Part shown: positions 5,917-52,958 of the stretch, piece after piece
Numbering within the stretch: position 1 is the first letter of the stretch
Layout: each line of letters opens with the position of its first letter
From: an uncultured Gammaproteobacteria bacterium
GTDB lineage: Bacteria; Pseudomonadota; Gammaproteobacteria; Steroidobacterales; Steroidobacteraceae
Assembly (NCBI GenBank): GCA_963794445.1
Contig: CAWCDZ010000001.1
Location: 177,190 to 241,189 of the forward strand
Length of the DNA: 64,000 nucleotides
Reading direction: 5' to 3'
Notes under the pieces: model-generated
The model's input: only the letters and a program-made list of their open reading frames with translations
Databases searched by the model: none
Told to the model about the DNA's origin: nothing
Made by a program: the position numbers and the translations under genes

Positions 5917-6268
5917 TGGTGGAGCCGGGGGGAATCGAACCCCCGTCCATAAGTCCTACGCTGCAAGATCTACGTACGTAGCCACGTCTATTGTTCTCAC
6001 CGCACGCTACCCAACGGGCAGGGAAAGCGCGCAGCCAGCCCGGTAATTTTTCGTTTAACACACCCCAGGCACGTGTGCTCCACTATCTGATGAGCGCTAC
6101 ACTTAAACATTCGCATCAGCACGAGCTGCTTAAGTTTCAACCGCGATTAGGCGGCTAGAGCGTAGTTGTCTTGATTGGCAACTATAAGTTTGCAAATAGT
6201 TTTACGAGGAACCTGCACCTCGGTACGCCCCTGCAGTTTCGCAACCCATGTCGAAACCGGTCGGCCCC
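5917..6268 (-). ncRNA. ssrA: tmRNA (SsrA), tag peptide ANQDNYALAA
   Basis: On the minus strand the 5' end reads GGGGCCGACCGGTTTCGACATGGG. The 3' end reads GGACGGGGGTTCGATTCCCCCCGGCTCCACCA (tRNA-Ala-like, CCA). The tag frame GCC AAT CAA GAC AAC TAC GCT CTA GCC GCC TAA lies at 6147-6179. The gene sits directly downstream of smpB. Confidence 0.95.
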
Positions 6269-6317
6269 ATCGAATCCCCAGTTTACGCTTTTTTCACCCA
6301 CCGCGTCAGTGACCAGG

Positions 6318-6791
6318 CTAGCGGCGCATCGCCTTCATGATTCGGCCCTTGTCGCGCTGCCAGTCGCGGTCCTTTTCCGTGTGGCGCTTGTCGTGCTGCT
6401 TTTTGCCTTTGGCCAGGCCCACGCTCAGCTTGGCGCGCCCCGCCTTCCAATAGAGCTCCAGCGGCACCAGCGTATAGCCGCGCCGTTCCACGGCGCCGAC
6501 CAAGTGATCCAGCTCGCGGCGGTTCAGCAGCAGCTTGCGCGTGCGTGTCGGATCGGTCTCCACGTGGGTGGAGGCCGAGGTCAGGGGATTCAAGTGGGCG
6601 CCGAACAGGAACGCCTCGCCATTCTTGACGTAGACATAGGCCTCGGCGATCTGTGCCTTGCCGGCGCGCATGCTCTTGACCTCCCACCCCATCAGGGAAA
6701 TGCCGGCCTCCAAGCGCTCTTCGATGAAATAGTCGAAGCGTGCTTTGCGGTTGACTGCGATCGGCGGTAGTTTTTCGGGTGCCTTTGCCAC
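6318..6791 (-). CDS. smpB: SsrA-binding protein SmpB
   Basis: Intact 157-aa ORF with conserved [21 protein letters not shown] and TRTRKLLL motifs. Confidence 0.97.
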
Positions 6792-7575: not shown

Positions 7576-7921
7576 TTTTCGCCGCCGACGCGTCTTGGGC
7601 CGCGGCTTCCGCATCCGTGGGTTTATCCAAGCGCGCGACTTTGTCGCCGTCGAAATAGACGGTGACACGGCGCGAGTCGACGTGCCGCGTGCGGCCTTTC
7701 TTGAGATAGTAGATATAGTCCCAACGTTCCTTGTCGAAGCTGTCGGCCACCATCGGAGTTCCCAACAAGTAGCGCACCTGACTGCGCGTCATGCCGGGCT
7801 TCACAGTGTCGACGGCGCTCTGGTTGAGGAAATTACCCTGTTGAATGTTGATGCGGTAAACACAGCCCGAAGCCAGCAATGAGAACGCGGACCCCAAAAC
7901 AAGGCGCTGAATTATTTTCAT
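7553..7921 (-). CDS. bamE: outer-membrane protein assembly factor BamE (SmpA/OmlA lipoprotein)
   Basis: Lipobox LLASGC, then YRINIQQGNFL and GMTRSQVRYLLGTP motifs. Confidence 0.9.
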   Translation of the reverse strand: MKIIQRLVLGSAFSLLASGCVYRINIQQGNFLNQSAVDTVKPGMTRSQVRYLLGTPMVADSFDKERWDYIYYLKKGRTRHVDSRRVTVYFDGDKVARLDKPTDAEAAAQDASAAKIKNGRIY

Positions 7922-28875: not shown

Positions 28876-28960
28876 GCCGACGTGGCGAAATTGGTAGACG
28901 CGCTAGTTTGAGGGGCTAGTGGGGCAACCTGTGCCGGTTCGAGTCCGGCCGTCGGCACCA
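28876..28960 (+). tRNA. tRNA-Leu (anticodon GAG)
   Basis: 85 nt. Acceptor stem GCCGACG/CGTCGGC, anticodon stem CTAGT/GCTAG with loop TTGAGGG, a long variable arm, T-arm GCCGG-TTCGAGT-CCGGC, and an encoded CCA. Confidence 0.93.
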
Positions 28961-37438: not shown

Positions 37439-38045
37439 TGTTCCCGACCATCCTTTTCTTCATCTTCGCCGCCGTGCTGGTCGGCGCGGCCTCGGCGTGA
37501 TCCTGGCGCGAAATCCGGTGCACTGCGCGCTGCTGCTGGTGCTGTGCTTCTTCAACAGCGCCGTGATCTGGCTGCTGCTCGATGCGGAATTTTTGGGGAT
37601 CGTGCTGGTGCTGGTGTACGTGGGCGCCGTCATGGTGCTGTTCCTGTTCGTGGTGATGATGCTCGACGTCAATCTGGAGAAGCTCCGCAAGGAGTTCGTC
37701 GGCTACTGGCCGCTGGCCGTGGCGGTGGCGGGCTTCGTGGTGTTCGCGATCATCAACGTGATCGTGGTGCAAGCATTTGGGCGGCGCGGCCTTGAGGACC
37801 GCGCCGGCGACTGCCGCCGGATTATTCCAATACCCGCGACCTCGGCGCGGCAGCTGTTCACGCGCTATGCCTATCCCGCGCAGATCGCGGCGCGTGATCC
37901 TGTTGGTGGCGAGCGTCGCGGCCATCGTCCTGACGCTTGCGGCAACGCAAGGGCGGCAAGCCGCAGGACATCGCCGCCCAAGTCGCGGTGCGCGCCAAGG
38001 ACCGGGTGCGGGTCGTCAAAATGGCCTCCGAGAAGAGATCCATGA
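37438..38045 (+). CDS. nuoJ: NADH-quinone oxidoreductase subunit J (at least 3 frame changes)
   Basis: [20 protein letters not shown], then [52 protein letters not shown], then the tail DRVRVVKM. The stop is placed by an ATGA overlap with nuoK. Confidence 0.85.
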
Positions 38046-38347
38046 TCTCCTTGACCTACGTGCTGGCGCTGTCGGGCGTCCTGTTCGCCATCGCGGTCGC
38101 CGGCGTGTTCTTGAACCGCAAGAACATCATCGTCCTGTTGATGTGCATCGAGCTCATGCTGCTCGCCGTGAATTTCAATTTCGTCGCGTTTTCGCGCTTC
38201 CGCGGCGATATCGGCGGGCAGATTTTCGTATTTTTCATTCTGACGGTCGCGGCGGCGGAGGCGGCGATCGGTCTGGCGATCCTGGTGGTGCTGTTCCGCG
38301 AACGCAGCAGCATCGAGGTCGAGGATCTGGACACGCTTCAGGGCTAA
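38042..38347 (+). CDS. nuoK: NADH-quinone oxidoreductase subunit K
   Basis: Intact ORF: [15 protein letters not shown]...[16 protein letters not shown]...[13 protein letters not shown]. Confidence 0.93.
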
Positions 38348-38356
38348 GAAGAGCAC

Positions 38357-40325
38357 ATGCAGTCGATTTATCTGACGATCGTGTTGGCGCCGCTGATCGG
38401 CTGCACTCGTCGCCGGCCTGTTCGGCAAGACGCGATCGGCCGGGTAGGCGCGCACAGCGTCACCATTCTGGGCGTGGCGCATTTCCTGCGCGCTGTCCTT
38501 CTACGTGCTCTACAAGCAGGTCTTCGAGGGCATGGCTGCCTTCAACGGCGCGGTCTACACATGGCTGGTGAGCGATGGTGTGCAGCATCGATGTGGGATT
38601 TCTGATCGACCGGCTGTCCGCGATGATGATGGCGGTGGTGACCTTCGTGTCGCTTGATGGTGCACATCTACACCATCGGCTACATGGCAGACGACGATCC
38701 GGCTATCAGCGCTTCTTCAGCTATATCTCGCTGTTCACCTTTTCGATGCTGATGCTGGTGATGGCGAATAACTTCATGCAGTTGTTCTTCGGCTGGGAAG
38801 CGGTGGGCGTCGTGTCCTACCTGTTGATCGGATTCTGGTACACGCGGCCCACCGCCATCTTCGCGAGCCTGAAGGCCTTCCTGGTCAACCGGGTCGGGGA
38901 TTTCGGTTTCGTCCTCGGCATCGCCGCGGTGCTGCGTTACACCGGATCGCTGGATTATGCCACGGTGTTCGCGCATGCCGGCCAGATCGCCGCCGCGCAG
39001 GTTCACATCACGAGCACGGTCGCGTGGCCGGCGATCACCTTCACCTGCATTTGCCTGTTCGTCGGCGCCATGGGCAAGTCGGCGCAGGTGCCGCTGCACG
39101 TCTGGCTGCCCGATTCGATGGAAGGTCCGACGCCGATCTCGGCGCTGATCCACGCGGCGACCATGGTGACTGCGGGCATTTTCATGGTGGCGCGCATGTC
39201 GCCGCTGTTCGAACTGTCGGAGACCGCGCTTGTCGTTCGTGCTGATCATCGGCGCGACCACCGCGTTCTTCATGGGTCTCCTCGGCATCGTCGAACAACG
39301 ACATCAAGCGCGTGATCGCGTACTCGACGCTGTCGCAGCTGGGCTACATGACCGTCGCGCTGGGCGCCTCGGCCTACGGCGCCGGCATTTTCCATCTCAT
39401 GACGCATGCCTTCTTCAAGGCGCTGTTGTTCCTCGCGGCGGGCTCGGTGATCATCGCCATGCATCATGAGCAGGACATGCGCAAGATGGGCGGCCTGCGC
39501 AAGTACATGCCGATCACCTACTGGACGTGCCTGATCGGCTGCCTGGCATTGATCGGATTTCCCGGGCACCGCGGGGTTCTTCTCCAAGGACTCGCTGATC
39601 GAAGCGGTGCATGCCTCGCATCGCGTCGGGTTCCGGATACGCTTACTTCTGCGTGCTCACGGGCGTGTTCATCACGGCCCTGTACACCTTCCGCATGTTC
39701 TTCATGACCTTCCTCGGCAAGGAGCGCATGGATCATCACACGCAGGAGCATTTGCACGAGAGCCCCTGGGTGGTGACGTGCCGCTGGTCCTTCTCGCGAT
39801 TCCTTCGGCGATCATCGGCTGGTTCACCGTCGAGACCGATGCTGTTCGGCAGGTACTTCGAGGGCTCCATTCACGTGCTCCCGCCAACAATGTATTGGCG
39901 CACGGTCGGCGAGGAATTCCACGGGCCCGCGTCCTTCGTGCTGTCGGCGTTCCTGCGCCTCCCGTATGGCTGGCCGGCTTGGGCGTATTCGACGGCCTGG
40001 CTATTCTTCTTGTGGCGGCCGGCGCTCGCGGACGCGGCGGAAGCGAAGTTCAAATGGCTGCTACACCATACTGATCAATAAATTCGGCTTCGACTGGTTC
40101 AATGAGCACGTCATCATGGCCGGTGCCCGCATGCTGGGCGGCAGGCCTGTGGCGCGTCGGCGATCAGCTGGTCATCGATGGCGGCCTGGTCAACGGCAGC
40201 GCGCGTACCGTCGGCTGGCTGGGATCGGTCATGCGCTACGCGCAGTCGGGATACCTGTATCACTACGCCTTCGCCATGATCTTGGGATTGGCTGCGCTGC
40301 TCCTGTGGCTGATCTGGCGGCATGA
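38357..40325 (+). CDS. nuoL: NADH-quinone oxidoreductase subunit L (at least 7 frame changes)
   Basis: [59 protein letters not shown] and [11 protein letters not shown] occur in collinear fragments. The end is inferred from an ATGA overlap with nuoM. Confidence 0.88.
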
Positions 40326-41850
40326 GCTTGAGCGACCACTTGCTGTCATGGCTGATCTGGCTGCCCATCGTCGGCGGCTTCGTGGTGCTCGGTCTCGGTA
40401 ACGACCAGGGTCGAGCGCTCGCGAAATGGCTGTCGCTGGCGGTGAGCGCGCTCGCGACTGCTGCTTCAGCATTCCGCTGTGGAGCCTGGTTCAAGACCGG
40501 TACCGCGGAAATGCAGTTCGTCGAGCGCGCGCCGTGGATTTCGACCATCCATTCGCAATACTACATCGGCGTCGACGGCATCTCGATGCCGCTGATCCTG
40601 CTGACCACCTTCACCACCGTGCTGATCGTCATCGCCGGCTGGCAGAACGTCGAGAAGCGTGTGGCACAGTACATGGCGTCGTTCCTGATCCTCGAAGGAC
40701 TGATGATCGGGGTGTTCGCGGCGCTGGACGGCGTGCTGTTCTACGTGTTCTGGGAAGCAATGCTGCTGCCGATGTTCATCATCATCGGCGTCTGGGGCGG
40801 CCCGCGCCGCGTGTACGCCACCATCAAGTTCTTTCTCTACACCTTCATCGGCTCGCTGTTGATGCTGGTCGCGCTCATTTACCTGTACTTGAAGTCCGGC
40901 AGCTACGAGCTCGCGGTGTTTCAGCACATGCCGCTCACGCTTGCGGGAACAGGCTTTCATTTTTCTCGCCTTCTTCGCCGCCTTCGCGGTCAAGGTGCCC
41001 ATGTTTCCGGTGCATACCTGGTTGCCGGATGCGCACGTCGAGGCGCCGACCGGCGGATCGGTGGTGCTGGCGGCCATCATGTTGAAAATGGGCGGATACG
41101 GCTTCCTGCGCTTCTCGCTGCCGATCGCTCCCGATGCCAGCCGGGAATTGGATTGGCTGATCATCGCGCTGTCGCTGATTGCCGTGGTGTACATCGGCTT
41201 CGTGGCGCTGGCGCAGCGCGACATGAAGAAGCTGATTGCATATTCATCGATTGCGCACATGGGCTTCGTCACGTTGGGCATGTTCATTGCCTTTCAAATC
41301 GTCGCGCACACCGGCAAAACCAGCGGCATCGAGTTGGGTCTGGACGGCGCCGTGGTGCAAATGCTCTCGCACGGTTTGGTCTCCGGCAGCGATGTTCCTG
41401 TGCGTCGGCGTGATGTACGACCGCGTTCATAGCCGCGAGATCGCGAGCTACGGCGGCGTGGTCAACACCATGCCGAAGTTCGCCGCTTTCATGGTGTTGT
41501 TCGCGCTCGCCAACTCCGGCTTGCCGGGCACCTCGGGCTTCGTCGGCGAGTTCCTGGTCATTTTGGCGGCGTTCAAGGCCAACGTGTGGTATGCGTTTTT
41601 CGCGGCGATGACGCTGGTTCTCGGCGCGGCCTACACGCTGTGGCTGGTGAAGCGAGTGATCTTCGGGGAAGTCGCGAACGACAAGGTGGCGGCGCTCAAG
41701 GATCTGAACGGCCGAGAGTTTCTGGTGTTGGGGGCGCTTGCCGTTGCGGTGCTCGTTGTCGGGCTGTGGCCGGCGCCGCTTCTCGATGTGATGCGTGCGA
41801 CGACGCAGCATTTGGCCGAGCAGCTGCTCATCTCGAAGGTTGCACCGTAA
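40322..41850 (+). CDS. nuoM: NADH-quinone oxidoreductase subunit M (two frame changes near 40945 and 41390)
   Basis: Three collinear ORFs (40322.., 40941.., 41236..41850) with [26 protein letters not shown] and [11 protein letters not shown]. Confidence 0.92.
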
Positions 41851-41857
41851 GGTACGT

Positions 41858-43320
41858 ATGATCGCAGGCGCATTCAATCCGAGTTTCTTCAATTCAGGCT
41901 TGGTGCTACGCGTGGCCGGAAATATTCCTGTCGTTGGCCGCCTGCGCGATCCTGATGCTGGACTTGCTGCTGAATGATGCGCAGCGGCGCTGGACGGGCT
42001 GGTTGGCGATAGTGAGTTTGATCGTTACCGCGGTGCTGGTGGCGGTTCAGCCGCTGCCGACCAAAGTTCTCGCGCTCGGCGGCCTGTTTGAACTGGACCG
42101 GATGGCGCAAGTCTTGAAGATCGCCATGATCCTGATCGTGGCGGCCGTGTTCGTGTATTCCACCGATTATCTGCAACGCCGCTTGATATTGAAGGGCGAG
42201 TACTTCGTGCTTGGGCTGTTTGCAACCGTCGGCGGCATGGTGCTGATCTCGGCCGCCAGCCTGATTACCCTGTACTTGGGGCTGGAGCTGATGTCGCTTG
42301 TGCTTGTACGCCATGGTGGCGTTCGACCGCGACTCCGGTATCGCAGCGGAATCGGCGATCAAGTACTTCGTACTGGGTTCCATGGCATCGGGAACCTTGC
42401 TGTACGGCATGTCCATTGTTTATGGCGTCACCGGCAGCTTGGAGCTGGCGGAGATTGCGGCGGCCGTGCGCGACAGCGGCATTGGCGGCAACATCGGTCT
42501 GTTGTTCGGCATCGCCTTCTTGATCGTCGGCGTTGGTTTCAAATTTGGCGCGGTGCCGTTTCACATGTGGATACCGGACGTGTACGAGGGGTCGCCCACC
42601 TGCGTCACGGTGTTCATCGGCACCGCTTCGAAGCTCGCCGCGTTCGCGCTCGCGATGCGCCTGTTGCCCGAAGCGCTGGGCGCCTCGCAGCCGGACTGGA
42701 GCCAGATGTTGGTGGTGCTCGCGGTGTTGTCGATGACCATCGGCAACATCGTCGCCATCGCGCAGACCAACTTGAAGCGCATGCTGGCGTACTCGACGAT
42801 TTCGCATGTGGGCTATGTACTGCTGGGGATTCTTTCCGGCACGGCCCAGGGCTATCAGGCCTCGATGTTCTACATGATCAGCTATATCCTGGTCGCCGCC
42901 GGTGCGTTCGGCATGATTTTGCTGCTGGCGAAGCAGGGATTCGAAGCCGACAAGATTACCGACTTCAAGGGTCTCAACGCGCGAAGTCCGTGGTTCGCGG
43001 GCATGATGGCGATCCTCATGTTCAGCCTGGCCGGCGTACCGCCGTTCATCGGCTTTTGGGCAAAGCTCGGCGTCATCCAGGCCGTTCTGGGCGTGCACAT
43101 GGTTTGGCTCGCGGTGGTGGCGGTTTTATTCTCGGTGGTCGGTGCCTATTTCTATTTGCGCATCGTCAAGCTCATGTATTTCGATGAACCCACCGAGACC
43201 TCCAGCATCGGCGGATCGCTGTTGATGCGTACCGTTCTCAGCGCGAATGCGCTGCTGGTGTTTGCGCTCGGGGTGATACCCGGAACACTGCTGCAGATCT
43301 GTCAGAAGGCACTACTGTAG
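41858..43320 (+). CDS. nuoN: NADH-quinone oxidoreductase subunit N (two frame changes near 41915 and 42300)
   Basis: The ATG at 41858, ORF 41934.. (LGLELMSL) and ORF 42298..43320 ([31 protein letters not shown]) are collinear. Confidence 0.9.
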
Positions 43321-44030: not shown

Positions 44031-44107
<77 letters not shown>

Positions 44108-44143
44108 ATTCTAACTCCTTGATTTATAAGGAGTTTATAATTC

Positions 44144-45713
44144 TTAAGCCACCCGACAGATTCGAAGCGTGCCCCTACACGTTCGTCTCGGGGTGAAAAC
44201 CGTCCCGCGTCCGCCGAGCATTTCCCGGACCATTTCGCGTTCCTCCGTGGAGCGCTCGCTCTTGGTCACGTGCTTGCCTAGATTTTGCACCACTTCAGTG
44301 TAGCGTTCCGCCGTTAGAGCAAAGGACTGGACGAGGTTGGCGGGCGACGTCTTCACGGTCGAGGCAGCCCTTCGACGTTTGATTGCCAAGGCGTCCAGCG
44401 CGGCCTGCGCGACATCCGGTGATAGAGTCCGATCCCTCAACATTTTTCGAAGCAGGACTTCTTCAGCGAGCAGGGCGTCATCCTTGGCAGTATCCTCGTG
44501 TTTTCGTTTCGCCTCCTCAAAAACGGCCGCTTGGTATTCGCGCTTTGCGATCTCTATCGCTTCGGGCGATAGCAGATCCACAGCGAGATAGTTGACGATA
44601 GCCGCCTCGGCTCCTTCTCTTGGCACGACGATTTGGTTTGAGCACGCGCTGGGGCCACTGTAGATCCGGGACGCGCACTGATAACTTCGCTGATTCCTGG
44701 CGACGAAGCGTGAGCCGCATTCGCCGCAAACAAGCAACCCGGAAAGGAGCGACGATGCGGGTCGCCCCGGCAGTCGACGTCTTTGCGCTTGTTGGCCTAC
44801 TCGCCTGAGCGGACTGTCGCAGCTTGACTCGCTCCCAGAGCTCGTCGGAGATGATTCGCAGCCGTGGATCTTCCCGTCTCACCATCAAGGCCGGGTCCGC
44901 CGCGACGGCAACCCTCTTCTTGCTGTTCGCCGCACCTCGTTTCCATTGGAGCCGGCCCCAATTCATACGTCCAAGATAGCGCTCATTGTTCAAAATACCG
45001 TAACCGCGCTTCGGGTCACCTTGGATAGCCGAGCCCACCCACTTGCCGCGGCGCTTGGCATGCTCGCCTGTGTCAGTTCGCCGCCACGCTGCACCCGGGC
45101 TCGGGATGTTTTCAGAATTGAGGCGGTCTGCGATGGCGCGCGAGGAAATGCCGCCGGCATACAATTCGAAAATCCGGCGAACAACCGCCGCTTCGGTCTC
45201 GATTATTTCGACCTGACCGGACGTTGACTGTGAGGCTGGCCGGTAGCCATATGCTCGGCCGCCTGCGCTCTCACCTTTGATGGCTCTACCCTCCAGTCCC
45301 CGACGCGTTCGGTAAGAAGCCTCGCGGCGGGCGTGCTCGGCAACGGCTTGTTTGATTTGAATGACCAAACCCCAGCCGTCGCGACGTGTGTCATCTCCAA
45401 CCGCAGTTACGCAGTGTACGCCGAAGTCCTCAAACTCTGCGGAGCGGGGACCGAATTCGGCCCGATTGCGCCAGAGCCGCGAGATATCTTCCACCACGAT
45501 GACGCTGAATTCTCTACGTCGCGTTGCCGACAGTAATGCCTGATATCCAGGCCTATCTGCAGTTCCGCCCGACATGCCCTTGTCCTCGAAGCGCGCGACG
45601 ACATCAAAGCCGGCGGTTCTGGCGACACGATCACATTCGCGGAACTGATCATCGATAGACGCGTCGCGCTGCTTGTCCGTGCTATACCGAGCGTAGAGAG
45701 CTGCTTTAATCAT
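44144..45713 (-). CDS. large serine recombinase (resolvase domain + recombinase domain + zinc ribbon; one frame change near 44800)
   Basis: The N-terminal catalytic motif is AALYARYSTDKQ, with VVEDISRLWRN. The recombinase domain has VVRRIFELYAGGISSRAIADRLN and ILNNERYLG. The zinc ribbon GLLVCGECGSRF...YQCASR is in ORF 44144..44737. The joining frame gives VGQQAQRRRLPGRPASSLLSGLLVCGECG. Confidence 0.88.
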
Positions 45714-45958
45714 ATTTCCCTCTTACTTGTGGCCGACGAGTCTCCCTAAAACGTGGCATGCCCGAGGCAAATTCTCGCTTACTTTATGAAAACCATTGTA
45801 AAAAGGGGGGTGCACGGGTTGGGCATGCGAAATTAAAATGAATGTTTCACCGGGTAAATGACGAGCGAGCCGCATACTGCTGCGCGTATTGAATTGCCAT
45901 AGGCCGAGCGCGGCTGCTGGTACAATCACGTTGTCGGCAACCAAGGAAGGGGTCAGTT

Positions 45959-46597
45959 ATGGCGACGCTTAAAGAGAAAGTTCTGGAGCTTGCAGCGATA
46001 GCAAAGGAGTGTCCTGAGACCCTGCAGGCTGTCTGCTTCGAATTGCTGCTGAAGAACTACCTGGATTCTCTGTCGCCCAAACCTCCAAAGACGCCCAAAT
46101 CTGAGGCGGCTGAAACTCCGGAGACTCCTCCCGCCGATAGGTCGAAGCCTGACGAGAAGAAGCAATCTCTCGAGGAGGTCGTCAAGAGCCAGGACGATCT
46201 GGCGGAATCGGACGTTCACATTAAGGTCAGGCACTTTATGAAGAAGTGCGGTGTGACAATGGAGCAGCTGAACAACCTCTTCTATACGGACGGAGGTACG
46301 ATCGCGGCATTGTACGAGGATTTAAAGACGACGCGTATGGCCGAAGGGCAGATCCGGATTGCACTTCTTCAAGCGCTCCGCGGCGCTATGTCGACGGGCG
46401 AGTTCCAGACTCAGGTCGAGGACGTGCGGGCAGAGGCCAACGTACGCAAGTGCTATGACCTTACAAATTTCACGGGGAATTTCAAGAAAAACGCTGAGCT
46501 CTTCGACTTTGAGACTTACGATAAGTCGACGAAAATACTGCGGCTATCAGAGGCTGGGCGCAAAGAGCTGGCAGAGGTCATCAAAGAGCTGCAGTAG
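45959..46597 (+). CDS. hypothetical protein A (212 aa): short helical N-domain, P/E/K-rich linker, about 140-aa C-domain
   Basis: Intact ORF with a strong SD (AAGGAAGGGG) 6 nt upstream. The linker SPKPPKTPKSEAAETPETPPADRSKPDEKK maps to about 46073-46162. No family recognised. Confidence 0.7.
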   Translation: MATLKEKVLELAAIAKECPETLQAVCFELLLKNYLDSLSPKPPKTPKSEAAETPETPPADRSKPDEKKQSLEEVVKSQDDLAESDVHIKVRHFMKKCGVTMEQLNNLFYTDGGTIAALYEDLKTTRMAEGQIRIALLQALRGAMSTGEFQTQVEDVRAEANVRKCYDLTNFTGNFKKNAELFDFETYDKSTKILRLSEAGRKELAEVIKELQ

Positions 46598-46603
46598 CAG
46601 GCC

Positions 46604-47416
46604 ATGGACGAACGGCTGCAAAAATTCCATGAGGACGTGAAGGCGCTTCGCCGACTGTTGAAAGCCGACTCCGCTGCGCACGTGGCAAAGAAAGCGGTCA
46701 GGGCGGAGGCGGAGAGGTTGGGGCGGATGTGGTTTGCGGAAATCACCCCGCACCTTGAGAGAAAGCGCATATTCACGGAGGAACTCCTCAAAAAGTATGG
46801 GGCCACTTGCCAACGGCTGATCAAGTTGTCAGCGCCGAACAACCAAAGGTCCAGTTACCTCGAGGTCCTGGACGCGCTGGCGAAGCCTATGCGCGACGAA
46901 CTGATACTCCCTCTCCAGGCCAACCCCGCGGGCGTGGCGACGCCGACCATGTTCCAGTCTTTCGTGACGGCGTTGAAGGATCCGGAGGTCGGCGCCTATT
47001 TCCAAGAGGCGATCGATTGCGCTAAGAACGGCTTCCTTCGGGCGGCAGCGGTGATGGCATGGTGCGCGGCGATTGACCGCGTCCACCGCAAGATAGAACG
47101 GGTGGGCTTTTCCACGTTCAATGTCACATCCGCCCAGATGGCGAGTCAACAGAAGGGGCGGTTCAAGCGCTTTAACCAGATCCAGAACGTCGCGAGCGTC
47201 AGCGAACTCCGAGAGGTTTTTGACACGACCATCCTATGGGTAGTTGAGGGCATGGCTCTAATCGACTCCAATCAGCACACCCGGCTCCGAAGCTGCTTTG
47301 AGATGAGGTGTCACTGCGCACACCCCGGTGACGCGCCGATCACAGAGTACAACCTGATGTCTTTGTTCTCGGATATTCATCAAATCGTCCTTGAGAACCC
47401 AAAATTCAGTATTTGA
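46604..47416 (+). CDS. hypothetical protein B (270 aa) with C-terminal HEPN-like Rx4H motif
   Basis: Intact ORF starting 6 nt after protein A. The motif EM-R-CHCA-H-PGDAPIT (R235..H240, nt 47306-47323) lies in a helical C-terminal domain (YFQEAIDCAKNGFLRAAAVMAWCAAIDRV...). The HEPN assignment is by motif only. Confidence 0.7.
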   Translation: MDERLQKFHEDVKALRRLLKADSAAHVAKKAVRAEAERLGRMWFAEITPHLERKRIFTEELLKKYGATCQRLIKLSAPNNQRSSYLEVLDALAKPMRDELILPLQANPAGVATPTMFQSFVTALKDPEVGAYFQEAIDCAKNGFLRAAAVMAWCAAIDRVHRKIERVGFSTFNVTSAQMASQQKGRFKRFNQIQNVASVSELREVFDTTILWVVEGMALIDSNQHTRLRSCFEMRCHCAHPGDAPITEYNLMSLFSDIHQIVLENPKFSI

Positions 47417-47726: not shown

Positions 47727-48829
47727 CTAGCTCGCCATAAGGGTTTCACCATCAATGTCGTTCCACGGATGGCTGTCCTCCCGGTTCGAGTGCTCGACAC
47801 TGAACGGATCGTACATCAGATAATCTTGGATGCGCCGCAGCTTTTCGGCGTCCTCGGGCCGTTGTACCCATAGAGCCGCGTCAGCTAGTTTCTTTTTGAC
47901 GATTAGCGGGAAAAGGATGGACGCGAAAGCCAGATGGGCGGCGCCGCTCCAAACAAAGTGATCCAGCTTGCGGTCGGCACCGTGAGCATTGGCCCCCCGC
48001 AGTGCGCTGAATTCCTGGGCCCACGCGCCGAGGATGCTGGGCGCTTGGGGGAATCGGTTTTTCCACTTGCCCAGCAGCGGCCCCTGTAGCTCGGCGTCAA
48101 TGTTGGGGATGCACGCTTGCAGGGCATTGGAAAACTCCTTGGCATTCGGTCCGATCCGCAGTAGCCGTTCAAAGGCAGACTTCACCAATACGACCTCAAT
48201 GTGGAGCGGCACGTCCAGGGAATCAGTGTTAGCCGCGTTGAATTCTTCCAGCGCGTCGATGAGAGGGTCATCTGCGTCGGGCGGAAGGTCCAGCAGGACC
48301 GCAGCCAGCTTTGGTCCAGTTCGATCCGAGCACGGGAGTCAACGTGTAGTGGGCGATGAAAGGCGAACGCATTCGCATTCCAATAGTTCGACGTGCCGCC
48401 GTCCCGGCGCCGGGTGCTATAAGCGAATCGGTCGGCCGCGCCCTGTCTGGTACTGTTGCACAATCATGGTGTATGTGTCATAGCAGCAATAGTGCATATG
48501 ACCGAACAGTCGCCGATGCGATAGCGCCGAAAAGCCGATGATGATCCGAGCGCGGAACAGGCGCTCCCTGGCGGCAACGTCTGCCTCCATCCCGGTGCTG
48601 CCACCCGTCTGCCTCGATTAAGGTGGCCTCGGAAACCCGAGTCTATGGGGCCGTTGCTGTATGCGCGGAGAACATTGTCCAGGTCCGCCTGCTTCGCGTG
48701 GTCAATATCACCTGGCTCCTGGCCCTTCATATGTGGCAGCAGCCGGACGGACCGCCCCAGAGCAACGGGCTCCGCAAGAGCAGCCCAAGGGAAGAACGCC
48801 ACGGAGCTTACGAAAGCCGACTCGGTCAC
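47727..48829 (-). CDS. hypothetical protein C with C-terminal HEPN-like motif (LRGANAHG); about 3 frame changes plus an in-frame TGA; possible pseudogene
   Basis: The C-terminal 161 aa are intact (ORF 47727..48212; RGANAH at 47982-47999). Upstream coding-looking pieces are collinear: 48464..48829, then GMEADVAARERLFRARIIIGFSALSHRRLFGHMHYCCYDTYTMIVQQYQTG in a second frame, then ORF 48182..48463, then LAAVLLDLPPDADDPLIDALEEF. The N-terminal limit is uncertain. Confidence 0.5.
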
Positions 48830-49630: not shown

Positions 49631-49886
49631 GGAAGCACTGTATACCATAGGAGACACTCTGTAAACTGTAGGATACGCGCTGGACTTCTCAGAGCGGAGC
49701 CGCCGCAACAGACCAGGTACCTGATTCTTAAGGTGAAATGTGAAGGAGGTACCGCTCGGCGCATTCGCCTGTCATATCAACAATTGATCGATTGGGCGAT
49801 ATTGGTTTTTGTGCCATTTGTCGAAAAATATCTCGTGGCACAGCGACATCTTGCGTCGCCGCGTTCCGTTAGAATTCCGAATCATG

Positions 49887-49902
49887 CCCCCGCTACCAAT
49901 TC
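49887..49902 (+). repeat. direct repeat copy 2 (attR-like of island 1 / attL-like of island 2)
   Basis: CCCCCGCTACCAATTC. The preceding AATTCCGAATCATG resembles a diverged tRNA T-loop/3' half and is shared with copy 3. Confidence 0.85.
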
Positions 49903-50194
49903 CCAGAAAATCGTTTATTTATCAGTCACTTATTGGTGGCGTGATTTGAACTTTCGGCAATCTATATTGCGCGCCGTGATGGTCTTCGGTTGCAGCAGCA
50001 TGCCGCCGGCGGGCAGGCGAGAACGCTCCGCGGACCCACCGTAGTCATTCGCACAATCCTAATCCGCGATTTGGAAAGGTTCTAAATCCAAATACTCTGA
50101 CGGGATACCTTGTGCCCTTCAGCCAAACGTCGGGAGCGCGCAGATCAAATTGCACGGGAAGAGCAAGATCAAACGCTAGGTACCCGGTACACGG

Positions 50195-50651: not shown

Positions 50652-50758
50652 AAAACGTTGCCCCTTGAATCGTTTGGGTATCACGGTGTTTATGCGGTTT
50701 ACGCATTGTCTTGATTCGCTAGTTCAAGTCCCAAGTCCACTCGACAGGGCGCCAAATT

Positions 50759-51618
50759 CTACCGACTATCGTCGAGCAGTGGATTGATAAACCCCGACAC
50801 CGCGGTGGTGAGTTGTTCCAGAGTCGTCCACGCAAGCTCATTCGCTCGTGCCATCTCGCGATAAGGGATCGACCAGTTCGCGGGTGGATCCGGAAGAGAC
50901 GACGGTATGGAATGAGTCGCGCGAAATTCAAACGTGCGTTCCAACGCTGAGCGCAGTCGCACTGCTTCGAGCGGCCGCGTGGTGGCGAGCAACGCGATGT
51001 CGGGAAGATCTTTGATGCGAGTATTGGGGCGCGCACGTGGCATCGTGTATGCATGCAGTTTCTCGGCGATGTGGGTCTCAATCGGATACAGCCGCACCAC
51101 CGGCGGTGCAATACCCGCGAACTCGAGCACATCGTCGGCGGCGACGGCTTCGGGCTCGCCCAGAATGGATCGCCAAAGGCGACATCAACGCCGAATGCTT
51201 GGCCGTATAGCTTGCCGGCCAATCGGCACTCGGCGCGAAATCTCAGGCCTTCGTACTTCATTCCATCGTTTTGGATTTTGGGCTGTTCCGTGTCGCGACT
51301 CACTTCGAAGGCCATGAAATCGCCGAGTACCTGCCGTCCAGCTTCCTGAAGATCTGCAAGTACGGTCTCCGGCGACCCGGTCAGCCGCAGGTCGATATCC
51401 TTGGTGGTCCGAGCGCGTTCCAGCCGAAGTTCAAGTACGAGCCCGCCTTTCAAGAGCACCGTGTCCCTCAGAACGGAGACGACGCGCGCCAAGAATCGGT
51501 CGAACACCAGTAGCTGTCGTCGGCGCGCAAAGTCGACACCGTTTTTGGATGCGGACCTCAGTCGTTGTTCCAGCGCCTCTTTGAAGGCTTGAGGAGAGTT
51601 GTACGTTCGTGCTGTCAT
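50759..51618 (-). CDS. abiEii: AbiEii/AbiGii-family nucleotidyltransferase toxin (DUF1814; one frame change near 51150)
   Basis: The N-terminal part (FKEALEQRLRS..., LLKGGLVLELRL...RTTKDIDL) is in ORF 50719..51618. The C-terminal part (YPIETHIAEKLHAY..., IKDLPDIALL) is in ORF 50759..51130. The start overlaps the abiEi stop (ATGA). Confidence 0.85.
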
Positions 51619-52199
51619 CCCCTAATTCCCCCAAAGGGCTTGAGAGTCTTTTCAACATCGGCAAGTTCCGCCTTCGTCACCAGCCCGCGGGCGAGGGCTT
51701 GCTTCGTAGCCTGGCGGAGCAGATCGGGAGAGAGGCCCGCGAGGGCGCAGTCGTTGAGCGTGCGGCGGGTGGAAGTCACGGGCACTGCGCCGTTCCATGA
51801 TCGATCTTGTCCCGGTACATCGGCGTAATGGAGCACGAGGCCTTTAGGGACGCGAAGCCGCCGTTGTCGCCATGTCAGCGGTAGGGTCAGATGAATTTGT
51901 GCCGGCAGCGTATCGGAAAGGCCTTGTAGCGAGAGCGCTGTTTGATGCGAAAGCACGCCCATTGCGTCGGTCCACAGCCACGCGGAGACTAACTCCTCCT
52001 GCTCGCCGGTCGGGAAATGAACCAGGCGATAAATTCCGCGGCGTATTCGCACGATGCGCCCAACCTTTTGATGGTGAGCTAGAAGCGGGTCCGAGTAGCC
52101 GGCGGCAGCCGCCTGACGGGTCGTGAATAGACCCTCTTGGGACGCGGCAATGTCGTAAAGCGCTTGCCAGTTGGGTTCGGCGACTGGGACTGAGTTCAT
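51615..52199 (-). CDS. abiEi: AbiEi-family type IV antitoxin / transcriptional regulator
   Basis: LYDIAASQEGLFTTRQAAAAGYS...LLAHHQKVGRIVRIRRGIYRL (N-terminal winged-helix-type AbiEi_4 pattern) plus a C-terminal domain. Trimmed to the ATG at 52199. Confidence 0.85.
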   Translation of the reverse strand: MNSVPVAEPNWQALYDIAASQEGLFTTRQAAAAGYSDPLLAHHQKVGRIVRIRRGIYRLVHFPTGEQEELVSAWLWTDAMGVLSHQTALSLQGLSDTLPAQIHLTLPLTWRQRRLRVPKGLVLHYADVPGQDRSWNGAVPVTSTRRTLNDCALAGLSPDLLRQATKQALARGLVTKAELADVEKTLKPFGGIRG

Positions 52200-52200
52200 A

Positions 52201-52231
52201 CACAAAACTTAAATTATATTGAAGTTTTGTG
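52201..52231 (-). promoter_or_regulatory. perfect 10-bp inverted repeat spanning a TATAAT box: candidate AbiEi operator/promoter
   Basis: The minus strand reads CACAAAACTT-CAATATAATTT-AAGTTTTGTG, ending 1 nt before the abiEi ATG. The spacer contains TATAAT. Confidence 0.6.
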
Positions 52232-52375
52232 CAAGTCTCTTGATTGGGATAAAAGTCGGACCTATCTATATTTTATAGCACTATCATACTTACCAGAACA
52301 TGTGGCTCAGTTAGTAGCCACTAAATCCTATAAAAAAATCTCCTGGCGGTTCCACTGGTTATAATTCCGATCATG

Positions 52376-52390
52376 CCCCCGCTACCAATT
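52376..52390 (+). repeat. direct repeat copy 3 (distal att-like site)
   Basis: CCCCCGCTACCAATT, preceded by AATTCCGATCATG. Confidence 0.8.
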
Positions 52391-52958
52391 AAAACAATAG
52401 GTTACAGAAAAACCTCCAAACTGGATTGACCTGGCGGTGACCAAATTGTGCCCTAAAAAGGCGCGGTTCTGGCTAAATCAAATAACGGCGGCTCATCGCG
52501 ATTCACCAGATCAATCCTGAATTCGCGAAGTGAATTCACTGGCGCTCATAGTCCCGTCGTCCCGCATTGGTCGCAAATTCAGCACCTTGCGATACGGGTG
52601 ATGCCCCCTTCTTCAGCGACGTCGCGGCGTGCGTGCGAGCGACTTGTCCATCGCAGTTGGCGAGGCAATCCTCATCGACGACCATCGGGTTCCTGCCCCG
52701 TACGCCGATGCGGGGAGCGTCAATTTATGTCGGCGAGTATGTGGGTCCACATCGTAAATTAGTTGTTGATAACTTTCCTCTGAGCACTCTGGCCTGGAAT
52801 CGACCGGAAATAGCGATGGACCAGCTTCGGCCAGAAAGCGTAAATGGCAGTACTGAGTTGACCGCCACATACCTGACATTCGCTGAGCAATGTAGACTCA
52901 CTGGCGGTAAGCGAAAGAGTTCCCACGCTGTGATGAACCTGCTGGAGAGAGTGCGATA

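Follow-up and report, generated by a model that had tools for sequence, protein, structure and literature searches.

The gene pair at the locus

The stretch of DNA analyzed here, which comprises 64,000 nucleotides from the genome of an uncultured gammaproteobacterium and is referred to throughout as the window, carries on its forward strand two adjacent open reading frames (ORFs), gene A (45959-46597; 212 amino acids, ATG start) and gene B (46604-47416, stop codon included; 270 amino acids, ATG start), which are separated by a spacer of only six nucleotides (caggcc) and together span about 1.46 kb. By sequence reading, a Shine-Dalgarno-like element, AAGGAAGGGG, is located on the same strand at 45943-45952, six nucleotides before the ATG of A. 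Protein B is divided into an N-terminal domain that forms four long helices in an AlphaFold2 model (residues 1-123; 46604-46972, forward strand) and a C-terminal domain that is identified by profile matches as a HEPN domain and a predicted RNase (residues 124-270; 46973-47416, forward strand). The translation of the latter contains EMRCHCAHPGDAPIT, in which the Rx4H motif R235-C-H-C-A-H240 is encoded at 47306-47323 on the forward strand, with R235 at 47306-47308 and H240 at 47321-47323. Protein A is predicted to be the partner of B, an antitoxin-like regulator. The original prediction, which was made from the sequence of the window, had described two same-strand ORFs six nucleotides apart, a strong Shine-Dalgarno sequence before the first and an Rx4H-bearing segment at the end of the second, and each of these features is present as claimed.

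Both proteins have numerous relatives: 687 homologues of B and 450 homologues of A were found in the protein database at E <= 1e-3, and the relatives of B represent 459 clusters at 50% identity. The ratio of nonsynonymous to synonymous substitution rates (dN/dS) lies between 0.03 and 0.07 for A and B alike, and the least saturated pair of loci (L002/L066) gives values of 0.072 for A and 0.048 for B. Because of the abundance of these homologues and the low dN/dS, it can be concluded that A and B are genuine genes under purifying selection, and not chance ORFs.

Association of A with B and host range

The association between the two genes was evaluated from both sides. A scan seeded with B, in which each species was represented by one genome, returned 40 loci, 36 of which contain a full-length B; A is found directly upstream on the same strand in all 36 of these, and the other four loci contain truncated fragments of B. 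An independent scan of metagenomes seeded with A returned 80 loci, and B is found directly downstream of A in every one of the 67 for which at least 300 nucleotides of downstream sequence are available. The homologues of A and B therefore co-occur in both directions, as the original prediction had supposed. The gap between the genes in close relatives is 0-8 nucleotides, and a pair which is adjacent, co-directional, tightly spaced and strictly co-occurring displays the generic trait of a type II toxin-antitoxin (TA) system.

The hosts of the pair belong to more than ten phyla and include Gamma-, Beta- and Alphaproteobacteria, Myxococcota, Planctomycetota, Verrucomicrobiota, Acidobacteriota and Bacteroidota, as well as WOR-3, Hydrogenedentota, Clostridia (Firmicutes) and bacteria of the Candidate Phyla Radiation (CPR; Paceibacteria and Saccharibacteria). 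Because this distribution is patchy and crosses phyla, it indicates that A-B has been transferred horizontally. No homologue of B was found in the phage collection searched, and the plasmid collection yielded none except for one weak match on a Streptomyces plasmid.

Protein B carries a C-terminal HEPN domain

The AlphaFold model of B, which was generated with an alignment of 34 sequences and has a mean predicted local distance difference test score (pLDDT) of 87.7, is all-helical and consists of two domains that are split by a low-confidence loop at residues 109-113. The helices of the N-terminal domain comprise residues 3-21, 30-54, 59-75 and 82-106. No relative of this domain (residues 1-123) was found in searches of Pfam or the Protein Data Bank (PDB), and in distant relatives of the C-terminal domain it is exchanged for other N-termini (NTP_transf_2, leucine-rich repeats (LRRs) or a zinc finger). 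It is proposed to be a regulatory or partner-docking domain.

The residues expected to be catalytic are highly conserved: neither R235 nor H240 varies in the alignment of the 34 homologues of B, and both are at least 90% conserved in a set of 45 diverged C-terminal domains whose identity extends down to 28%, which bears out the expectation that the Rx4H residues would be shared among homologues. In the model of B, R235 closes the helix formed by residues 222-237, and H240 is located in the loop which precedes the helix formed by residues 248-263. In HEPN domains, the Rx4-6H motif occupies the end of core helix 3 and the start of the loop that follows it (PMC3710099), and the placement of the motif in the model agrees with this position.

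The profile built from the 45 diverged C-terminal domains (profile A3) matches a solved HEPN domain, the PDB entry 9wx2_A, "Dandelion-hepn", with an E-value of 2e-6, and it also matches 9wxf_A, "Dandelion" (460 residues, 12 chains), with an E-value of 3.5e-5. The alignment of A3 with Dandelion covers the region of the first helix and the motif, where RnqsaHPg stands opposite RHLSAHPV. Single-sequence and narrow-profile searches of the PDB with A and B returned nothing meaningful, and only the profile of diverged C-terminal domains reached a HEPN structure: the narrow family profile (A1) shows similarity to Dandelion with an E-value of just 0.41, compared to 2e-6 for A3. A 42-amino acid "Dandelion" fragment used as a protein query returned a single 65-amino acid fragment. 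Independently of the PDB, the PADLOC model for the defence system PD-T7-3 matches residues 124-241 of B over positions 13-121 of the 432 in the profile, with an E-value of 7e-4 (3.3e-4 for the domain and approximately 1e-3 for the protein), and it matches 13 of the 45 diverged C-terminal domains, with a best E-value of 1.8e-6. The profile phrog_27609 matches the C-terminal domain of B as well (E 8.4e-9). PD-T7-3 corresponds to DARNA, an abortive-infection HEPN nuclease which cleaves tRNA anticodons and which carries the motif R117x4H122 (bioRxiv 10.64898/2026.02.22.705581), and the Dandelion entries 9wx2 and 9wxf appear to be proteins of this type. The matches to the solved HEPN domain and to PD-T7-3, in which the motif is in register, uphold the earlier proposal that the C-terminus of B is HEPN-like, and on this sequence-profile evidence, together with the motif, residues 124-270 are assigned to a HEPN domain which is predicted to be an RNase.

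In distant relatives, HEPN domains of the type found in B are fused to a nucleotidyltransferase domain of the minimal nucleotidyltransferase (MNT) type (NTP_transf_2; protein P0300) or, among the proteins P0322, P0291 and P0287, to LRRs, to a PglZ-like segment (E 1.7e-4, which is under the Pfam cut-off) or to a DnaJ-type zinc finger. Because it is fused to such varied domains, the B-type HEPN domain can be regarded, at the level of these predicted architectures, as a shuffled effector module.

All 120 of the B homologues listed carry a precomputed hit to the Pfam family PF27235, "AF_1680", which is uncharacterized; these proteins are 54-77% identical to B over 94-100% of the query, except for the truncated P0039, which is 99% identical. 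A search of the literature returned nothing on AF_1680 or PF27235, and nothing relevant on "Dandelion" in combination with HEPN. Scans of A and B against PADLOC, NCBIfam and a copy of Pfam that does not contain PF27235 produced no match to a named system above threshold, and no system name for the A-B pair was found in the databases and literature searched. The statement that neither protein can be placed in a named family or system accordingly stands, with PF27235 being the only family to which the homologues of B are assigned.

Protein A is a hairpin joined to a predicted winged helix

As modelled by AlphaFold (pLDDT 84.9), A contains two helices, formed by residues 4-16 and 20-38, a disordered stretch at residues 44-74 and a folded domain comprising residues 75-212, so the earlier description of a helical head, a linker rich in proline, glutamate and lysine, and a C-terminal domain is borne out by the model. 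The hairpin (residues 1-38) is nearly invariant in an alignment of A homologues (A2), in which E10, P19, Q23, C26-F27-E28 and L30-L31 are conserved and the last of these positions form part of a CFELLL motif. The P/E/K-rich linker (residues 44-74) has a pLDDT below 50 and varies in both sequence and length.

The top matches to the C-terminal domain of A in a Foldseek search of the PDB are all winged helix-turn-helix (wHTH) proteins, the best of which is F93 of STIV (E 3.6e-2, probability 0.96); none has an E-value of 0.001 or below. Further wHTH matches include APE_0880a, NadR and MarR-family proteins, AF1382 and the winged-helix domains of Cdc6/ORC. The C-terminal domain is therefore predicted from the model to contain a winged helix, in keeping with the wHTH-like appearance noted for its sequence. 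The only family match of A is to DUF7189, and it is sub-threshold. No nucleotidyltransferase signature was detected in A in the Pfam, NCBIfam or PADLOC scans, and since the model is that of a hairpin and a wHTH domain, the claim that A is not the MNT nucleotidyltransferase which usually partners HEPN toxins is confirmed. The upstream position of A, its predicted disordered linker and its predicted wHTH domain are antitoxin-like, and the latter two are what is generally expected of the antitoxin in a type II TA system.

The pair moves as an integron cassette and in other contexts

A-B is flanked by integron recombination sites (attC) in three separate integrons, and in two of them (L001/L017 and L059) it makes up the entire cassette. 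In the Myxococcota locus L001/L017, a 131-bp attC repeat is present in two copies which exactly enclose A-B; the array here has more than 25 cassettes and lies next to a gene with Phage_int_SAM_4 and Phage_integrase domains. In L059, attC repeats at 6262-6346 and 7852-7914 precisely bracket the pair. In a group of gammaproteobacterial loci (L002/L016 and L003-L005), A-B lies between attC sites of the form GCCCAAC...GTTAGGC, near a divergent intI-like gene, and the cassette contains an additional gene (6988-7338 in L002) which encodes a 117-amino acid Bflower protein (4-fold beta-flower, Pfam E 1e-31); this gene ends 15 nucleotides upstream of A with no intervening attC, which makes the arrangement a three-gene variant of the cassette. 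Among unique loci, an attC-like hairpin is found just after B in 8 of 81, compared to 3 of 185 control windows. The distance from attC to the start of A in the integron copies is only 22-25 nucleotides.

Elsewhere, the pair is found in association with tyrosine integrases, with insertion sequence (IS) elements, with a cluster of type I restriction-modification, Fic and PIN-Phd genes, with a TIR gene, in an integrative element encoding a primase, TrwB and a methylase, and, in one instance, inserted among dihydroxyacetone-kinase genes. In a survey of 150 neighbouring ORFs at 27 loci, the commonest families were Phage_integrase (6), Phage_int_SAM_1 (4), HisKA, a family of two-component signalling (3), and Phage_int_SAM_4, rve transposase, Zeta_toxin and HTH_3 (2 each). 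A conserved third gene was considered and rejected, as the commonest neighbouring family, Phage_integrase, accounts for just 6 of the 150 ORFs. When the window is compared to its relatives, DNA similarity extends from the start codon of A to the stop codon of B and no further. Because A and B alone can form a cassette, whose mobility is supplied by the integron integrase IntI in trans, A-B is an autonomous, self-sufficient functional unit and not a housekeeping component of one mobile element; cassettes holding only A and B rule against that alternative, which the original prediction had named as one that would undo it. The window copy was also considered as a degraded integron cassette, and this was rejected because no attC-like hairpin flanks A-B there.

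Surroundings of the pair in the window

The original prediction placed the pair in a tRNA-flanked island with a recombinase and with TA and abortive-infection (Abi) modules. The contents of this region are as described, according to Pfam and ARAGORN, but it is not a single island. A tRNA-Met gene (CAT; 44031-44107, forward strand, ARAGORN) serves as the integration target, and its 3' end belongs to a family of direct repeats (D1), the left copy of which is located at 44085-44115 on the forward strand. A repeat search identified a second copy at 49876-49906 (forward strand), which forms the right boundary of a 5.8-kb islet, and a third at 52365-52395, which closes a second islet; the copies show 77% and 81% identity over 31 nucleotides and share the core CCCCCGCTACCAATT. 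Since the 3' end of tRNA-Met is thus repeated at three places, the "island" is in fact two tandem islets integrated at one tRNA-Met.

The first islet (approximately 5.8 kb) contains a large serine recombinase (44144-45713, reverse strand; Pfam Resolvase, Recombinase and Zn_ribbon_recom), which is divided between two frames (44517-45713 and 44144-44737), followed by A-B, a broken gene of 403 amino acids and a pair consisting of a Gp49/HigB-like protein and a HI1420-type antidote. The second islet contains AbiEi and AbiEii, about 3 kb from A-B. AbiEi (51615-52205) is intact and lies upstream of AbiEii, which is present on the reverse strand in two frames (50719-51618 and 50759-51130) split at approximately position 152 of the 310 in the profile; this split is either a true frameshift or an assembly error.

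The integrity of A and B among broken neighbours had been offered as an argument in their favour. However, the genes nuoL, nuoM and nuoN in the same window (37700-43320) are each split into two or three ORFs in overlapping frames, while in the related locus L018 they are intact (602, 454 and 492 amino acids), and in another relative, L020, the recombinase (531 amino acids) and the gene convergent with B (403 amino acids) are intact. Because nuoL/M/N are also broken in the window, and because these various genes are intact in relatives, the frame breaks in the window are probably assembly indels, which occur about once per kb. At this rate, a stretch of 1.46 kb would be expected to be free of breaks by chance about one quarter of the time. 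Intactness among apparent pseudogenes was accordingly rejected as a sign of selection, and the argument carries no weight. With indel errors probable at this rate, any gene of the window that is labelled a "pseudogene" must be viewed with caution.

The 403-amino acid gene which is convergent with B (10721-11932 in L020) appears on the reverse strand of the window in the frames 47727-48212, 48182-48463 and 48464-48829. One of its ORFs, of 161 amino acids, contains an Rx4H-like sequence, FSALRGANAHG, and was tried as a second related HEPN protein; its comparison with the HEPN domain of B gave an hhalign probability of 5.6%, and neither this ORF nor the 403-amino acid gene has a match in Pfam, PADLOC or the PDB. 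Two further RNA genes in the window are unrelated to A-B: a tmRNA gene with the tag ANQDNYALAA (5917-6268, reverse strand) and a tRNA-Leu(GAG) gene (28876-28960, forward strand).

Functional interpretation

The interpretation which is favoured here, with a confidence that is somewhat better than even, is that A-B constitutes an autonomous, mobile two-gene conflict module of the TA or abortive-infection kind, in which a HEPN RNase effector, B, is restrained by A. With respect to the earlier proposal of a TA or Abi pair with a non-canonical partner, the HEPN domain, the strict pairing and the non-MNT nature of the partner have all been sustained, while the TA or Abi function itself is one that we infer; the same applies to the RNase activity, the toxicity, the neutralisation by A and the trigger. 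In the proposed mechanism, B would be the effector, whose HEPN domain would dimerise like those of other HEPN RNases, and R235 and H240 would cleave cellular RNA (tRNA or mRNA), leading to translation arrest. A, co-translated from the shared transcript just ahead of B, would hold B inactive; its invariant hairpin, its C-terminal domain or both would dock on B, probably on the family-specific N-terminal domain, while nucleic acid would be bound by its winged helix, which would serve either autoregulation or sensing. The loss or displacement of A would then free the RNase, and this might be triggered when the linker is proteolysed, when the element is lost or when a phage provides a cue.

The way in which the pair decays in some relatives is consistent with this interpretation. 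L018 and L020 are related gammaproteobacterial metagenome-assembled genomes which are close relatives of the island in the window and which have suffered independent deletions. In L018 (10003-10553), the equivalent of window positions 44626-46839 is missing, so that A and the 5' part of B are gone; in L020 (9950-10040), a deletion joins the equivalents of window positions 45778 and 46927 through a CGC microhomology and removes A together with codons 1-108 of B. In a third locus, L040, B is frameshifted while A is intact. These three cases fit a toxin that is unable to outlive its partner. It may be added that the remnant of B in L018 is 99.5% identical to the window at the DNA level, compared to only 87-89% for the flanking chromosome, and this difference suggests that the island DNA of L018 and the window was recently exchanged.

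Several observations weigh against the favoured interpretation. First, in L058 (4581-6994), an IS element of the DDE_Tnp_1 type splits A after residue 88 and leaves B intact; the insertion parts the conserved hairpin of A from the winged-helix domain, and a 130-amino acid C-terminal fragment of A remains. From L058 it might be learned which of the two halves of A is required. In L056, A is spread over three frames and B is intact, although errors in long reads are a possible cause. The pattern in these two loci would be unexpected if B were lethal without A. Second, comparison of the window with its relatives revealed no conserved DNA upstream of A, and a search upstream of A in the window for a palindromic operator or a sigma-70 promoter found nothing beyond what is expected by chance; because conserved upstream DNA is absent and only 22-25 nucleotides separate attC from A, nothing points to an autoregulated promoter of the kind typical of type II TA systems. 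Third, the neighbour survey shows that defence genes near the homologues are sporadic and that their enrichment is weak. Finally, structure comparison gave a divided result: the model of B is all-helical, as a HEPN protein should be, but a Foldseek search with the full two-domain model produced no PDB hit at E <= 0.001 and no significant match in BFVD. The weak local matches of the full model do include the HEPN entries 2q00_B (TMt 0.64), 5yep_C and 5fsh_A, and the two-domain model probably dilutes the Foldseek signal.

Some of these same observations are accommodated by the strongest competing explanation, which is considered possible, though clearly less probable than not, and according to which the pair is a sensor-effector defence system: B would be auto-inhibited on its own, and the winged helix of A would sense a nucleic acid or protein cue from a phage and switch the RNase on. 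This would be a split form of the logic of DARNA, in which the single-stranded DNA (ssDNA) sensor and the HEPN domain share one protein. DARNA is the nearest characterized HEPN relative of B, and it is auto-inhibited as a stand-alone protein and activated by nucleic acid bound to its non-catalytic domain. The persistence of intact B beside a disrupted A in L058, and possibly in L056, and the lack of a conserved operator upstream of A are in line with this explanation, as are the similarly slow rates at which A and B evolve and the occurrence of the pair in promoterless integron cassettes, like the phage-defence cassettes of chromosomal integrons (10.1101/2024.07.02.601686). On the other hand, none of the more than 100 loci has an intact B without any remnant of A, part of B was lost along with A in both natural deletions, no clear enrichment of defence systems is evident in the neighbourhoods and the phage collection contains no homologue. 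A more specific version, which is put forward only tentatively, with about one chance in four left to it in our estimation, is that A-B is an unnamed anti-phage system in which A senses phage nucleic acid or protein and licenses B to cut tRNAs, and which is carried as a promoterless integron cassette that stays silent until it is shuffled to an expressed position. If this were true, a widespread two-gene HEPN system of a split, DARNA-like kind, present in more than ten phyla including the CPR, would join the catalogue of defence systems and the known integron defence cassettes.

A pair that is not involved in conflict at all, and that binds or processes a specific RNA or regulates transcription while leaving the host unharmed, is an improbable alternative. 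In its favour, HEPN domains that lack catalysis or that take part in RNA maturation are known (PMC3710099), the purifying selection on A and B is strong, and several loci lie amid metabolic genes; but the patchiness of the pair across more than ten phyla, its integron, integrase and IS contexts and the variability of its neighbours are characteristic of cargo that is selfish or defensive, and the catalytic arginine and histidine are nearly invariant. That the pair is a canonical HEPN-MNT (HepT-MntA) TA system in disguise is highly improbable: although the toxin is a HEPN protein and one distant relative fuses a B-type HEPN domain to NTP_transf_2, the explanation is refuted for A by the absence of a nucleotidyltransferase signature in Pfam, NCBIfam and PADLOC and by a model that consists of a helical hairpin and a winged helix, and the 123-residue N-terminal domain of B has no counterpart in HepT.

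The favoured interpretation, in which A restrains B, lends itself to experiment, as the pair is compact (1.46 kb), self-contained and easily cloned for testing. If the pair proves to be active, a new HEPN system could be named, a function would be available for PF27235, and the view that conflict systems are stockpiled in chromosomal integrons would be strengthened.

Comparison with known systems

Toxin-antitoxin, abortive-infection and CRISPR-associated systems have repeatedly made use of HEPN RNases as effectors, and the point of interest in each case is how the RNase is restrained, the usual means being an MNT nucleotidyltransferase, an RNA antitoxin or a fused sensor. HepT-MntA resembles A-B in that it is a mobile and patchily distributed two-gene operon in which the toxin is a HEPN Rx4H RNase and the partner is encoded upstream, but B is twice the size of HepT, and A does not belong to the minimal nucleotidyltransferases, so that A would not be expected to neutralise B by AMPylation.

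In AbiE, which has a combined Abi and TA role, the wHTH antitoxin AbiEi is encoded upstream of the nucleotidyltransferase toxin AbiEii. A-B shares with it the order of the genes, in which that of the (predicted) winged-helix partner precedes that of the (putative) toxin; it differs in that the toxin of AbiE is a nucleotidyltransferase and not a HEPN protein, and A matches no AbiEi model. RnlA-RnlB and LsoA-LsoB are anti-phage TA systems in which a multi-domain toxin with a C-terminal HEPN RNase is neutralised by an unrelated small protein. They are like A-B in that a C-terminal HEPN domain is part of a multi-domain protein; no sequence similarity to them turned up in searches that included no test aimed at them, and the partner in A-B is a predicted wHTH protein encoded upstream.

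The HEPN domain of DARNA is detectably homologous to that of B, with the Rx4H motif in register, although the similarity is remote. DARNA is a protein of approximately 456 amino acids with an N-terminal HEPN domain and a Pds5-like, ssDNA-binding C-terminal domain, and it assembles into a dodecamer (bioRxiv 10.64898/2026.02.22.705581). Whereas its HEPN domain is thus N-terminal and part of a single polypeptide, that of B is C-terminal and follows an unrelated 123-amino acid N-terminal domain; B has no match to positions 122-432 of the PD-T7-3 profile, and a separate wHTH partner gene is obligatory for it.

Both HEPN cassettes (PMC3710099) and phage-defence cassettes (10.1101/2024.07.02.601686) are known to occur in integrons. 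The integron-cassette HEPN family represented by PDB 3jrt is like A-B in that a HEPN gene is carried as an integron cassette, but cassettes of the 3jrt type and the defence cassettes contain single small genes, while A-B is an obligate two-gene cassette of approximately 1.5 kb; 3jrt itself is absent from the sequence-profile and Foldseek results for B. Taken against these systems, the use of a HEPN effector within TA or Abi logic is already familiar, and A-B introduces no new principle. What is new in A-B is the combination of a unique N-terminal domain with a DARNA-like HEPN domain, the obligate winged-helix partner, and the recurrence of the pair as a two-gene integron cassette.

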